The notes: a model not told the origin generated them from the sequence alone. A DNA stretch of 22,250 nt from Bdellovibrionales bacterium (GCA_037969075.1 JBBKWS010000106.1:1-22250); one strand, 5' to 3'; counted from the first letter of the stretch, positions 15,032-19,959 are shown. Numbers and translations are program-made.

Positions 15032-16261
15032 ATGAGATCATTGACGCAAAAAGTCTTAATTTTTAGTCTCCCTATTCTTATCTTTGGGTGCGCTAGAAGC
15101 ACAATAAAAGATAAAAACGAGGCTCTACGCCTAACTTCTGCTAGCATTGAGATAAATGATGATCTGGGACTCACCAGCTTTGCTCAGGATCTTAGCAACT
15201 ACATCAAAACCCTACAAAAAACCTCGTTCAAAAGACAGTTTTTTAACTACAGCAATACTATATGGACAGGCGAAGAAGTTATCAACGCTTACGAGGATCT
15301 GAATGCTTTTATGGCTACAAATCCAGATTTTGATAAGCTAAACCAATACATTAAAGAACATTTCTCATGGTTAGAGGTTTACGGTGCAGATGATTGGGGA
15401 CAGGTATTTATCACTTCTTATTTTGAACCGCTTTACCAAGGCTCACCTGTAAAAACTAAGACGTACTCACAACCCATCTATTTATTACCAAAAGATCTAG
15501 TTCAAATTGATTTAGAGGGTTTTACAAAAACTCATACTCAGCTAGAGCCTTATTTAGGCTATATAAATAAAGGACAACCTGGGCCACGGACACTGACTGG
15601 AAGAATCGACTTAAAAACTAAAAAAGTAAGTCCCTATTATAGTCGCGAAGAAATTGTAGATAAAGATAAACTCAAAAACAAAAATCTTGAGGTTGTTTGG
15701 CTCGATCCTATTGATAATTTTTTTCTACAAATACAAGGATCTGGCACTATAGCAATGGCTAAAGAAAATTTGCAGGTAGGCTATGCGGGACAAAATGGCC
15801 ATGCCTATGTGCCTATAGGTAAATTTGTAACTGATGTGATCCCAATAAAAGAACTTACTATGAGTAATCTGGTGGCGTACTTAAAAAGTCTACCGTACGA
15901 AGAACAGGCCAAAATCTTAAATCAAAATCCTAGCTATGTCTTTTTTCAAACACGCAAGACACGTCCGTTAACTAGTAGTGGTACCGAGGTCATTGATGGT
16001 CGCACTATCGCCACCGATTCTTTTTACTTACCTAAAGGTTTTATTGGGATGCTCGAGTTTCAAAAGCCTGACAAAGTTGAGTCTCCGAACTATCAAACCA
16101 TGCGCAGGCTTGTATTTAATCAAGACACAGGTGGAGCTATTAGAGGCCCTGGCAGAGTGGATTTATTTTGGGGTAAAGGAAGTCTTGCCGGTGACTTAGC
16201 CGGCAATGTAAAACACGATGGTAAACTTTGGTTTTTGCTACCTAAGAAAGTTCAGCCGTAA
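15032..16261 (+). CDS. mltA: Membrane-bound lytic murein transglycosylase A
   Basis: Lipobox IFGC; TSYFEP, FFLQIQGSG, YAGQNGHAY, NPSYVFF; 3D domain with IATD and QDTGGAIRGPGRVDLFWG. Confidence 0.95.
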   Translation: MRSLTQKVLIFSLPILIFGCARSTIKDKNEALRLTSASIEINDDLGLTSFAQDLSNYIKTLQKTSFKRQFFNYSNTIWTGEEVINAYEDLNAFMATNPDFDKLNQYIKEHFSWLEVYGADDWGQVFITSYFEPLYQGSPVKTKTYSQPIYLLPKDLVQIDLEGFTKTHTQLEPYLGYINKGQPGPRTLTGRIDLKTKKVSPYYSREEIVDKDKLKNKNLEVVWLDPIDNFFLQIQGSGTIAMAKENLQVGYAGQNGHAYVPIGKFVTDVIPIKELTMSNLVAYLKSLPYEEQAKILNQNPSYVFFQTRKTRPLTSSGTEVIDGRTIATDSFYLPKGFIGMLEFQKPDKVESPNYQTMRRLVFNQDTGGAIRGPGRVDLFWGKGSLAGDLAGNVKHDGKLWFLLPKKVQP

Positions 16262-17240
16262 ATTTCATTACCTCTGTAACATCAGCTTCATCAAGCCTTG
16301 CACCATATTTAGCAACAACCCGAGATGCAGCAAAGTTAGCCACTTGCGCAGCCTTTTTGTAATCGAAACCCTTTTCAATAGCTGCTAAAAATGCGCCCGC
16401 AAATACATCCCCCGCGCCAGTTGTATCAACCGCTTTCACCTTAAATCCATCAACAGTGTGAATAGCTTTTCCGTCGTAAACGATAGAGCCTAAAGCGCTT
16501 CTTGTAATCACAAAGTTAGATGCACAGGTTTTCATTTTTTCAACGGCATCATGAATCGTCTCGGTGCTTGTGAACGAAAGCACCTCTTTTTCATTAGCAA
16601 ATATTAAATCAATCCCTTCACCTACAATTTCATTCATACCATCTCTAAAGAATTCAATGATACCAGGATCCGAGAACGACAATGAGGTCAAAATACCTTT
16701 GTCTTTACAAAACTTCTTAGCAGCAAGTACCGCTGCTTTTGCTGTAGGAGATGCAACTAAATAACCCTCAATATAAAAATACTTTGCTTCCTCTAAGGCG
16801 GCATAATTTAATTGCTCTTCAGCAACTGTAGCCGTGATACCCAGAAAAGTTTCCATACTTCTCTCAGCGTCTGGTGTAATCATCACCAAACATTTACCCG
16901 TAATACCGTCTGGTAAATCTTGTTTATCAAAGTTTGAGTCCACATGTTGATTTTTTAGATCCTGATAAAAAAACTTGCCCGCATCATCGTTAGCCACTTT
17001 ATAAGAGTAAAATGACTTTGCCCCTAATTGTTGACTAGTAATAATCGTGTTAGCCGCACTACCACCACAACTACGCTTTTTAATTTTATGATTGATCTTT
17101 GACAACAACTTTTCTTGCCTAGGCTGATCTACAAGTACCATTAGACTTTTTTTAACCTCTAAGAGATTTAAATCTTCATCAGTAACTACTATCTCGTGGT
17201 CCACTAGTGCATTTCCAAATCCGTATACTGAATATTTCAT
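16242..17240 (-). CDS. PfkB-family carbohydrate/nucleoside kinase (adenosine kinase-like)
   Basis: GNALVD, GGSAANT, AERSMETFLG, FANEKE, VDTTGAGDVFAGAF. Confidence 0.92.
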   Translation of the reverse strand: MKYSVYGFGNALVDHEIVVTDEDLNLLEVKKSLMVLVDQPRQEKLLSKINHKIKKRSCGGSAANTIITSQQLGAKSFYSYKVANDDAGKFFYQDLKNQHVDSNFDKQDLPDGITGKCLVMITPDAERSMETFLGITATVAEEQLNYAALEEAKYFYIEGYLVASPTAKAAVLAAKKFCKDKGILTSLSFSDPGIIEFFRDGMNEIVGEGIDLIFANEKEVLSFTSTETIHDAVEKMKTCASNFVITRSALGSIVYDGKAIHTVDGFKVKAVDTTGAGDVFAGAFLAAIEKGFDYKKAAQVANFAASRVVAKYGARLDEADVTEVMKFTAELS

Positions 17241-17249
17241 ATTATCCCT

Positions 17250-17501
17250 TTACAGTGAAATTAGACCATCTATACCGCGAACCTCTTCGTATTTCGCAAT
17301 TACTTCTTCTGGATTAGAGAAGTGCATACGACAAGAAAAACGTAGGTAATTTCCTTTTGCTGATGGCTTGATATCATAGAGTTCTTTAGTAAAAACATCC
17401 TTGAGAGTCGAAAATGAACTGGCAGGAATTACAAATCTAAACTCGTAAGCTCCGGGCCAGGTATGTTCCGTCTGAAGTAGCTGTAGAAAGTTGTTTTCCA
17501 T
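17250..17501 (-). CDS. DUF493/YbeD-like protein (ATG 17501 preferred over TTG 17519)
   Basis: HTWPGAYEFRFVIP, PSAKGNYL and C-terminal GIDGLISL. Confidence 0.85.
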   Translation of the reverse strand: MENNFLQLLQTEHTWPGAYEFRFVIPASSFSTLKDVFTKELYDIKPSAKGNYLRFSCRMHFSNPEEVIAKYEEVRGIDGLISL

Positions 17502-17534
17502 ATAATTCTGGTCTAACAAAAGCCGGATAGTCTG

Positions 17535-18545
17535 TCACTTTGATTCTTTGGCCAATTGTAAGATCTGCTTAATTAAAGCCTTATAATTCATCCCTTTTTT
17601 GTGAGCTGATATAGAGAACTCATCGTCAGGAGATAGTGCTGGATTGGGGTTTGCCTCAATCACGTAAGGTACGCCCTCTGAGTTTAAACGTAGATCAATC
17701 CTAGCATAAGAGCTTAACTGCAGGTTCTTATATGTCCTTTTACAAACCTGCTCTATTCGCTTTAAAGTGGCAGGGTCAATCCCCTCGGCGACTTGAGAAA
17801 ATATTCCATTTTTAGCTCTATACTTTTCGTCCCATTTTACTTTTCTTGTGGCGAACTCAAAGTTGGGATCTTTTGACTTTGAAAAAACTAACTCGGTGGG
17901 AGGAAATATTTTTAAACGACCATTGCCCATAACAGAAACATACAGTTCTCGCCCTTCGATAAACTCTTCGACAATTGCATCTGTCTTGACCGTCTCGTGA
18001 ATAAATTCAATTCTCTCATTCAAACTTTTATCATCATATACAAGGGAGGCTTGAGAAATACCAAGAGATGCCTCTTCATTGAGGGACTTAACAAATAACG
18101 GAAAATGTAAGTCTTTTCTGGCAAACTTACGGTTCTTTTTTGCAACCGCAAATTTAGGAACAGGTATCCGGTGGTAAGTTAAAATCTTTTTTGTTAACGC
18201 CTTATCTCTTGATAAAATCAATCCCCGGGGATTACAACCTGTATACGCTAAACCAATTAACTCTAAGTAACTAACTACGTTGGCATCATATACTGCTTCG
18301 CCGTTAAACTCTTCTAACATATTAAATGCTAGATCTGGCTTATGCTCGAAATTCAGTTTGCGAATCGGTGATAAATCATCAGATAAAGGCGCCAAGATTA
18401 CCTCGTGCCCCAAGCTCTTTAATGTCTTGATAACATGATATTCCATCTTCCATTCTGCCGTTTCGGCCTCACTTACCTTAACGGTTAAATCTGGAACCAA
18501 AGATTCGTGAAGTAGAGCCAGTATTTTTATTTTTTTTACTGTCAT
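17535..18545 (-). CDS. ATP-grasp ligase of the D-Ala-D-Ala ligase superfamily, non-canonical
   Basis: YTGC...DKALTKKIL, FPLFVKS, EEASLGI, VEEFIEGRELYV, YARIDLRL, IEANPNP; lacks the Ddl GGxSxE and LHGxxGEDG motifs. Confidence 0.88.
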   Translation of the reverse strand: MTVKKIKILALLHESLVPDLTVKVSEAETAEWKMEYHVIKTLKSLGHEVILAPLSDDLSPIRKLNFEHKPDLAFNMLEEFNGEAVYDANVVSYLELIGLAYTGCNPRGLILSRDKALTKKILTYHRIPVPKFAVAKKNRKFARKDLHFPLFVKSLNEEASLGISQASLVYDDKSLNERIEFIHETVKTDAIVEEFIEGRELYVSVMGNGRLKIFPPTELVFSKSKDPNFEFATRKVKWDEKYRAKNGIFSQVAEGIDPATLKRIEQVCKRTYKNLQLSSYARIDLRLNSEGVPYVIEANPNPALSPDDEFSISAHKKGMNYKALIKQILQLAKESK

Positions 18546-19573
18546 GTGGAGAAAGAAATTCCTTTTTTCTCTATGGTTTTTTGTACTTTTAAAATCATCT
18601 TCTTTAGTGCTACTTGATCTTCTTTTTTAAGATATCTTAGGATTTGTGTCTTGCGCAGTAAAGGAGAATGTTTAAGTGACAATAAATATCTCATCTCGTA
18701 ATTAGTTAAAGCTTTACTTTTAGCGTACTTCAGGACCAATGCTTTAACTTTTTGAGTCTTCACTTCTTCTACAGGCTGATACTGTAATTGCTTTTCGATT
18801 TCTTTCCATGAAACACCAAGTAACTTCGCTTTGTTTTTATAATAGGTTCTTAGCTTCATTCGAGACTTCTTTGAATCTCCCACCTTATCCTTAAGTAGAT
18901 ACATCGGTGGAGAAGACTTTAATGTTTTTACTGTTTGGTCTATGTATTTTAATTTTTTCAATACTGTGCCAACGTACTTTTTCTTCCAACTACTTTTGGG
19001 ATTTAACCAAATTGCAAAGGTTTCCGCAAAGTCTTCATCAGGGTGAGTTTGCGCATAGTTACGTGGTAAGTTTTTAACAAACTTTCTGCTAAATAAAACT
19101 GGATAATAGGTTTTTGGATATTTTTTTGTACTGTTGCCAAACAGGGCTCTACGATCTTTACTATATCTAAGCTGATAGACTTTATCTACAATATGACCAG
19201 CTTCATGCCTAAGATATTTTAGAATATCAGATTTGCTCTTACCTTCACATTCTTTGTAAAAAGCCTCCTCTATTGCCATTAAGGTAGGGTGAGACAAATA
19301 AAATGGGATAGCTATGCCGTTCGTACCCTCAGGGTGAAACCACTCGGTAGAGAACCAATAATATGGCTTCCATCTAAATTGAGTTTTCTTCCACTCTTTT
19401 TCAAGAGACGTTATAGCAGAAGCAACAGGACCATCATTTAAACTCAACTTCAAATCACAAAATCTTAGGTCTAATAATTCGTTAACTGGAAGATTAAATA
19501 GGCCTGCCTTAGGCCTTGAAAACAGCTTCTTATATTTTGCTTGGTAGTATTTGATTTTCTCTTTTGCACCCAC
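18542..19573 (-). CDS. Putative zinc-binding metallopeptidase (zincin, Peptidase_Mx-like)
   Basis: LRHEAGH (HExxH), YAQTHPDEDFAETFA, IAIPFYLSHP; GTG start. Confidence 0.85.
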   Translation of the reverse strand: MGAKEKIKYYQAKYKKLFSRPKAGLFNLPVNELLDLRFCDLKLSLNDGPVASAITSLEKEWKKTQFRWKPYYWFSTEWFHPEGTNGIAIPFYLSHPTLMAIEEAFYKECEGKSKSDILKYLRHEAGHIVDKVYQLRYSKDRRALFGNSTKKYPKTYYPVLFSRKFVKNLPRNYAQTHPDEDFAETFAIWLNPKSSWKKKYVGTVLKKLKYIDQTVKTLKSSPPMYLLKDKVGDSKKSRMKLRTYYKNKAKLLGVSWKEIEKQLQYQPVEEVKTQKVKALVLKYAKSKALTNYEMRYLLSLKHSPLLRKTQILRYLKKEDQVALKKMILKVQKTIEKKGISFST

Positions 19574-19580
19574 GAAGAGA

Positions 19581-19609
19581 TATATAGAAAAGGCTCAACG
19601 TAGAGTCAA
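19581..19609 (-). promoter_or_regulatory. Possible internal sigma70 promoter for the peptidase-ligase pair
   Basis: TTGACT (19609-19604), 17 nt, TATATA (19586-19581), 7 nt, then GTG; no SD. The -10 lacks the final T. Confidence 0.45.
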
Positions 19610-19959
19610 TTACTGCCTTTATCGTTGGTCTTTCTTACAACCTCGATCTCTGCAGAAACTTTAAATTTGTGCTCTTCGACAAACCTTGAGGCCTCTTTTA
19701 CAAAGTCGATTTTTTTGATGATAGTTACAACTTCATTTCCAACTCGGTCCATCAGCTCCGCCTTAGACTTATTAGCCCCATCAATCAGTTTTCCGAGTAG
19801 GTCTTTTGGAAGCTTCAAGTCCTGCAAATACGTCCTAATCCCCTCTTCAGTGAGAAATGCGGCACTTACCCCTGTAGCCAAGAGTTTTTTAACAATCTCT
19901 GGAATAAGGCGTATTTTACCATCGTCATCAGACTCATCGTGTGGCGGCTTATTTTCCAT
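19606..19959 (-). CDS. Hypothetical helical protein with phasin-like N-terminus
   Basis: KKLLATGVSAAFLTEEGIR resembles phasin/PhaF-like amphipathic starts; overlaps the upstream SRPBCC gene by 11 nt. Confidence 0.75.
   Translation of the reverse strand: MENKPPHDESDDDGKIRLIPEIVKKLLATGVSAAFLTEEGIRTYLQDLKLPKDLLGKLIDGANKSKAELMDRVGNEVVTIIKKIDFVKEASRFVEEHKFKVSAEIEVVRKTNDKGSN

Follow-up and report, generated by a model that had tools for sequence, protein, structure and literature searches.

The window analyzed here, a 22,250-nucleotide stretch of DNA from a Bdellovibrionales bacterium, carries a peptidase gene and an overlapping ligase gene on its minus strand. The features that concern this pair are as follows.

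18542..19573, minus strand: zincin metallopeptidase-like gene, 343 amino acids, GTG start, Peptidase_Mx (PF15887)
17535..18545, minus strand: noncanonical Ddl-like ATP-grasp ligase gene, 336 amino acids, matching PF07478, in a clade of its own and with site changes
18542..18545, minus strand: ATGA start/stop overlap of the ligase start and the peptidase stop, implying translational coupling
19193..19207, minus strand: HExxH zinc motif HEAGH, peptidase residues 123 to 127, conserved in homologs
19022..19057, minus strand: peptidase motif YAQTHPDEDFAE, residues 173 to 184, with the conserved Tyr173 and the predicted third zinc ligand Glu184
19609-19581, minus strand: possible sigma-70 promoter TTGACT-17-TATATA, present in the sequence and tentatively assigned

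The ATGA overlap described in the earlier note was confirmed at 18542 to 18545, and an overlap of exactly -4 at 53 of 86 distinct peptidase-ligase junctions makes it a family trait. The claim that the pair has its own promoter held only in part: both boxes are in the sequence, and L011, a close relative, has the same -35 box, 17-nt spacer, and 7-nt distance to the start codon, which makes such a promoter plausible but weak, whereas the promoter scan did not call the site and found 13 sites where 15.2 were expected by chance. If the promoter is real, the transcript would begin at about the GTG and be leaderless; read-through transcription of the pair is equally possible, since the upstream gene on the same strand ends only 32 nt from the peptidase gene. 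The closest named relative is a Bdellovibrionales metagenome-assembled genome, with 82 to 85% identity (L011, L015). Genes for a DUF493-like protein and a PfkB kinase lie downstream of the ligase on the same strand (window positions 16242 to 17519), in an order conserved only in close relatives (L015, L153). At 19606 to 19959, a 117-amino-acid open reading frame, for which Pfam and NCBIfam gave no match, overlaps a START-domain gene, and both are conserved in L011 and L153.

The peptidase scores 38 bits against Peptidase_Mx (PF15887; cut-off, 27), although only positions 86 to 165 of the 236-position model are matched. Its catalytic domain spans about residues 25 to 225 and is followed by a helical C-terminal domain at about residues 270 to 340. 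Both zinc motifs named in the earlier note, HEAGH and YAQTHPDEDFAE, were found in the translation at residues 123 to 127 and 173 to 184. Among 129 divergent homologs, H123 is conserved in 99%, E124 in 98%, H127 in 100%, and Y173 and E184 in 98% each, and both motifs are intact in all 131 peptidases encoded at the loci examined. By analogy with other zincin motifs, E184 is predicted to be the third zinc ligand. A very divergent family peptidase in another genome (G214, L152:2337-3323; E value, 8e-33), encoded farther from its ligase, also keeps both zinc motifs. Three proteins of about 800 amino acids (P0503, P0504, and P0505) fuse the peptidase domain to Sod_Fe_C, two of them also to a topoisomerase IB core, and resemble multidomain proteins of mobile elements.

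An AlphaFold model of the peptidase (pLDDT, 84) retrieved, among 48,161 chains, a lethal factor fold as its best match (1yqy; Z, 9.6; rmsd, 3.1; 135 aligned residues) together with the Pro-Pro endopeptidase PPEP-3 (Z, 8.1; rmsd, 3.7; 130 aligned residues) and a second Pro-Pro endopeptidase (Z, 7.4), all at Z scores only modestly above background for the structure library. Foldseek returned the same families at a nonsignificant E value of 0.02 at best, the Pfam ATLF score fell below its cut-off, no sequence match was found to any solved peptidase, and the C-terminal helical domain had no clear fold match. Lethal factor- and PPEP-type zincins are secreted endopeptidases that bind extended peptides, and a fold of this type would make a dipeptide a less likely substrate than a longer peptide or a protein. 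The likeness to lethal factor appears to lie only at the level of the fold, and nothing in the model suggests a secreted toxin. What the pair's peptidase shares with Peptidase_Mx and these zincins is the above-threshold PF15887 score, the HExxH with its downstream Tyr and Glu, and possibly the catalytic fold; it differs in its partial Pfam coverage, its additional C-terminal domain, and its lack of a signal peptide. The last point, also made in the earlier note, was borne out across the family by hydropathy, used as a stand-in for a trained signal predictor: none of the 120 peptidases or 120 ligases examined has a signal-like N terminus by this measure, which did score positive for three exported-looking proteins from the window. 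The peptidase had further been described as Lys rich, which is true of this protein (16.9% Lys, the 99.8th percentile of 1,382 open reading frames in the genome) but is specific to its lineage: the family median is 6.8%, which rules out Lys richness as a family clue, and the only family-wide trait of this kind is a net basic charge (median of +18 in 129 sequences).

The ligase belongs to the Ddl-like ATP-grasp enzymes, matching PF07478 (Dala_Dala_lig_C) with 103.8 bits compared to 22.2 bits for RimK. A structural model (pLDDT, 90.9) has the three-domain Ddl fold (Foldseek E value, 2e-24; TM score, about 0.75), the best solved matches of the ligase are Ddl and Van ligases, and its nearest relatives by structure and by sequence are all small-molecule ligases. 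It nevertheless falls below every Ddl and Van cut-off shown, including the curated thresholds of PRK01372 (132 versus 243) and TIGR01205 (129 versus 245.65), and it has no match to the Ddl N-terminal domain PF01820, for which the genome's only match is a gene elsewhere (C123:7997-8920). In that gene, the best PF07478 match of the genome, the canonical motifs are present, and the genes after it look by eye like ftsQ, ftsA, and ftsZ; the ligase lies outside the dcw cluster and is 27% identical to this Ddl. A separate locus outscored the family ligase on PRK01372 in 44 of 45 chosen genomes (40 of the 103 peptidase carriers and 5 of the 20 genomes with the ligase only, as counted below), the exception being a genome that is 90% complete (G239). 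A quickly searched, midpoint-rooted tree of 113 rows (41 of the 93 ligases linked to a peptidase, 22 members of the family whose fetched locus had none, 20 sister domains, and 30 Ddl sequences) united the 63 family rows on a single branch (SH-aLRT, 100) that is separate from Ddl (99), with the rows lacking a peptidase dispersed over the family clade. The earlier claim that the ligase is not the housekeeping Ddl is thus well supported: the ligase is not the genome's only Ddl, and a housekeeping role was rejected on the cut-offs, the separate ddl upstream of ftsA-ftsZ, the higher-scoring loci in other genomes, the clade, and the replaced D-Ala contacts described next.

In Escherichia coli DdlB, the amine of the first D-Ala (D-Ala1) is bound by Glu15, the oxyanion pocket is built from the NH of Gly276 and from Arg255, the second D-Ala (D-Ala2) is held in place by Ser281 together with Tyr216, and the phosphates are bound by Lys97, Lys144, and Lys215 (PMC5717164). 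These positions were mapped onto the ligase by way of the genome's own Ddl, whose numbering is shifted by 6 starting at residue 138, in an alignment of 93 peptidase-linked ligases with 30 Ddl sequences from the 45 genomes, the genome's own Ddl included. Every motif quoted in the earlier note was located in the translation: the ATP-grasp core is retained in DK (114 to 115), VK (152 to 153), EEFIEGRE, and RID (282 to 284), and the motifs that bind D-Ala are replaced by FNMLEEFNGE (74 to 83), EEASLG (157 to 162), and EANPNP (297 to 302). K115, K153, K237, R282, D284, E297, and N299 are each invariant (93/93), and equivalents of DdlB Lys97, Lys144, Lys215, and Arg255 and of the Asp/Glu/Asn metal ligands are retained, so the acyl-phosphate chemistry is likely to be intact.

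The substrate contacts are a different matter. All 30 aligned Ddl sequences keep the equivalents of His63, Ser150, Tyr216, Gly276, and Ser281. His63, which we take to contribute to the D-Ala1 site through the LHG motif, is Glu78 in all 93 ligases and His in none, compared to His in 30 of 30 Ddl sequences. Ser150 is retained in 5 of the 93 ligases and becomes Ala or Gly in the other 88, the Gly preceding it becomes Glu or Asp in 91, and Tyr216 becomes Trp, Phe, or His in 91; the Gly276 column holds mostly Asn, Gln, Asp, or Glu. Ser281 is replaced by Glu or Asp in 86 of 93 ligases, and the residue after it is Asp or Glu in 91. For the Glu15 column, which falls in a gappy N-terminal region of the alignment, the count is 42 of the 93 ligases. 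The replacements at ligase positions 35, 78, 158, 308, and 309 are acidic, and Glu35, Arg178, Tyr242, Arg286, and Asn301 are new, nearly invariant residues of the family. With an acidic pair where Ddl holds the acceptor carboxylate, a simple alpha-amino acid in the position of D-Ala2 is not the predicted acceptor, and a cationic amine would be favored, as judged from alignment columns of which the N-terminal ones are gappy.

Compared to Ddl and Van ligases (TIGR01205 and PRK01372), the pair's ligase shares the three-domain ATP-grasp fold and the ATP, Mg, and acyl-phosphate residues and differs in its D-Ala contacts, its lack of PF01820, its separate clade, its location outside dcw, and its coupling to a peptidase. 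Databases name many family members D-alanine--D-alanine ligase, and this label, like the solved Ddl and Van structures among the best matches, would suit an alternative cell-wall precursor chemistry in which a D-Ala-X ligase is paired with a peptidase that edits stem peptides, as Van ligases are with VanX or VanY. Scores under the Ddl and Van cut-offs, the loss of contacts to both D-Ala residues, the higher-scoring Ddl elsewhere in 44 of 45 genomes, and neighborhoods in which no mur or van gene recurs make this very unlikely and the least probable of the readings considered here.

The two genes travel together. In profile searches over 301 genomes of the host's phylum, the peptidase was found in 103 and the ligase in 122 (E value of 1e-69 or better; weaker matches from 1e-55 were excluded and were mostly tandem sister proteins of about 690 amino acids). 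Both genes occurred in 102 genomes, the peptidase alone in 1, and the ligase alone in 20, counts that include related genomes and are not independent, such that a Fisher p value overstates the association. Among the 102 genomes with both, the genes are adjacent on the same strand with the peptidase first in 91, farther apart on one contig in 8, and on different contigs in 3. Among the best 80 of 584 metagenome loci, the ligase was adjacent in 62, 2 lacked it, and 16 were too short, or 62 of the 64 loci with room to judge; homologs of the two genes are thus usually adjacent. Together with the overlap and the absence of signal-like N termini, this adjacency supports well the proposal of a coupled, cytoplasmic pair. 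The near absence of the peptidase without the ligase, set beside the 20 of 122 ligase genomes that lack a peptidase, is an imbalance to be expected of an eraser that has no use unless its writer is present, with a ligase that tolerates losing the peptidase time and again, and a repeat search for the peptidase at an E value of 0.01 in 5 of those 20 genomes found none. A mirror-tree comparison over 17 genomes, a crude measure with some partial sequences, gave a peptidase-ligase rho of 0.19 (216 of 2,000 permutations were as high), no better than the 0.19 for peptidase and Ddl.

The families are large: 6,515 of 8,000 scored candidates matched the peptidase, and 1,049 representatives were counted at 50% identity (E values up to 1e-30). 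A cultured carrier of the ligase is Aureliella helgolandensis (P0152), and among the named sources are Planctomycetota, Vicinamibacterales, Nitrospira, Steroidobacteraceae, Binatia, and Thermoanaerobaculia. The length ranges searched were 188 to 601 and 775 to 2,210 amino acids; a fused pair would have about 680. In a sample of 151 Chloroflexota genomes, 3 matched and one carries the pair (L232), and divergent Peptidase_Mx proteins without a linked ligase occur at other Chloroflexota loci (L017-L021 and L233). The pair is patchily distributed among close relatives. This patchiness, the tight coupling, and the single genome of 103 in the phylum with the peptidase and no ligase are what an addiction or defense pair might produce, in which the peptidase harms the cell if its target is not repaired or protected by the ligase. 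Such a role is nonetheless very unlikely, given the lone peptidases of Chloroflexota, the ordinary chromosomal genes that flank the pair, and the lack of any match to PADLOC defense models or to 72,556 plasmids and 50,697 phages.

No third gene beside the pair recurs across lineages, and the flanking genes vary. In three Oligoflexales loci (L012, L013, and L016), the pair adjoins genes that read by eye as an imuA-imuB-dnaE2 cassette and lexA, and the first two of these have a shorter peptidase and encode the ligase on the other strand. A DUF6642 gene lies beside the ligase in three genomes without the peptidase (L139:6068-6646, L140:4418-4996, and L142:698-1276), and within family f15, 11 of the 15 genomes that have the ligase encode DUF6642, as does 1 of the 19 that lack it. 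It has a His-Gly ... Gly-Ala-Cys pattern, which we take to be reminiscent of caspase/CHAT peptidases, and 11% of one Atlas cluster is CHAT; against a role as a replacement peptidase, just 3 of 12 genomes, which belong to a single family, have it next to the ligase, and it had no match in the PDB. The window's own genome also contains two RimK-like ATP-grasp genes (C188:16922-19555 and C143:6459-8255) whose neighbors read by eye as a GNAT-peptidase fusion or as a protease and a deacylase, and these are possible further ligase-hydrolase modules.

Another possibility is that the two enzymes modify and mature a ribosomal peptide from a precursor encoded in trans, with the peptidase releasing the core peptide. 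The accessible text of one survey describes graspetide-like ATP-grasp branches 7 and 8 as linked to peptidases without detectable precursors (PMC8939145), a setting that the pair could resemble. A ligase of the Ddl type rather than the RimK type, as the scores above indicate, the absence of a conserved exporter among the neighbors, and the finding that none of 373 nearby short open reading frames recurs beyond 6 closely related loci make this quite unlikely; the pair has neither the linked precursor nor the graspetide-class ligase of graspetide clusters.

Sister ligases outside the family broaden the comparison. Ddl-like ligases, often with two tandem domains, are followed by a Peptidase_S58 gene at five loci (L171:3270-6417, L186:376-3730, L187:3845-7019, L189:3976-6107, and L188:3465-7822), in the last of which one ligase domain is fused to the S58 peptidase. 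Two Anaerolineae loci contain up to four Ddl-like ligases with a GNAT gene (L183:4268-10722 and L182:6630-11852), with a lysine 2,3-aminomutase upstream in L183. These sisters share with the pair's ligase Asn75, Glu78, Arg286, and linkage to amide-handling enzymes; they fall outside the 63-row clade, lack Glu35, Tyr242, and the acidic pair at 308 and 309, and have other partners. Their independent linkage to S58 suggests that the pairing of a ligase with a hydrolase has arisen more than once in this group of ligases.

The replacement of His63 by Glu is common to ligases beside lysine aminomutase and GNAT genes (10/10) and those beside S58 peptidases (10/10). Along with the Ddl fold and ancestry of the ligase, this could indicate that the pair synthesizes and turns over a small amide or short oligomer, such as a conjugate of a beta-amino acid, diamino acid, or polyamine or a nitrogen store comparable to that of cyanophycin synthetase and its hydrolase; a stand-alone unit of two genes would need no substrate gene if it used common metabolites. 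Lysine aminomutase-like genes show no enrichment in genomes with the peptidase (78 of 103, versus 145 of 198 others by hand count; Fisher p, 0.68), are found in 0 of 14 genomes of family f20 although 12 of these carry the peptidase, and are not adjacent to the pair in its own genome; beta-lysine as an obligate donor was rejected on this lack of enrichment. The modeled peptidase fold, moreover, would be that of endopeptidases and not dipeptidases. We regard this main rival as possible, if rather unlikely.

Systems that pair ATP-grasp ligases with peptidases have been predicted in print, in line with the earlier note, although in other families (PMC3495828, PMC6376114, and PMC8939145). In bacterial peptide-tagging operons with ATP-grasp, alpha-E, transglutaminase, and Anbu proteins, the ligase and peptidase are described in the accessible text as predicted writer and eraser (PMC3495828 and PMC6376114), and the role of the Anbu/transglutaminase operon is stated there to be unconfirmed (PMC6376114). 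The proposal of a ligase as writer and a peptidase as eraser is the point of likeness; the ligase of those operons, as described in these texts, is glutathione synthetase-like, whereas that of the pair is Ddl-like, in a unit of only two genes. No alpha-E, transglutaminase, or Anbu gene recurs beside the ligase, whose neighbors in the window are the DUF493, PfkB, and START genes and the unnamed open reading frame. The accessible portions of PMC11888242, PMC7824862, and PMC3410885 contain nothing on a Peptidase_Mx/Ddl-like pair, and none was found in the published literature searched, although the survey by Iyer et al. (2009) or its supplement may list it.

The reading that we tentatively prefer, at a probability of about 45%, is that the pair forms a conserved module in which the ligase writes and the peptidase erases, in the cytoplasm, a single amide linkage on a target whose gene lies at another locus. 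It draws on the intact zinc motifs, the retained ATP, Mg, and acyl-phosphate residues of the ligase and its acidic replacements, the copresence of both genes in 102 of 103 genomes and their usual adjacency, the scarcity of the peptidase without the ligase, the S58 linkage of the sister ligases, and the published predictions for ATP-grasp operons; weighing against it are the absence of a linked substrate gene, the 20 genomes with only the ligase, the lone Chloroflexota peptidases, the null mirror-tree result, and the small-molecule ligases among the relatives. In such a module, the ligase, like Ddl, would convert a carboxylate to an activated acyl-phosphate. The donor would be something other than D-Ala, its amine held by the family-specific Glu35 and Glu78. 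The acceptor, since Ser281 and the next residue are changed to Glu or Asp, would lack a carboxylate at the position of D-Ala2, and a Lys side chain, the basic end of a peptide, or another cationic amine would fit best. The lethal factor/PPEP-type zincin would then remove or trim the added group. A more specific version, reversible tagging of lysines or basic amines of cytoplasmic proteins by a Ddl-derived writer and a lethal factor-like eraser across Bdellovibrionota, Planctomycetota, Acidobacteriota, Nitrospirota, Gammaproteobacteria, and others, is more doubtful than the writer/eraser reading as such.

The pair is a real, widespread two-gene module of predicted function. A ligase that has lost the D-Ala sites and is often labeled D-Ala-D-Ala ligase is present in 102 of the 301 sampled genomes of the phylum and among thousands of proteins elsewhere, so inventories of cell-wall enzymes can be misled. 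Because the module consists of only two soluble enzymes, its chemistry is directly testable. That chemistry would supply the first substrate for a zincin of the Peptidase_Mx type, and it could either bear out the prediction, made long ago and still awaiting confirmation, that bacteria use ATP-grasp enzymes in writer/eraser tagging or bring to light a new amide metabolite.
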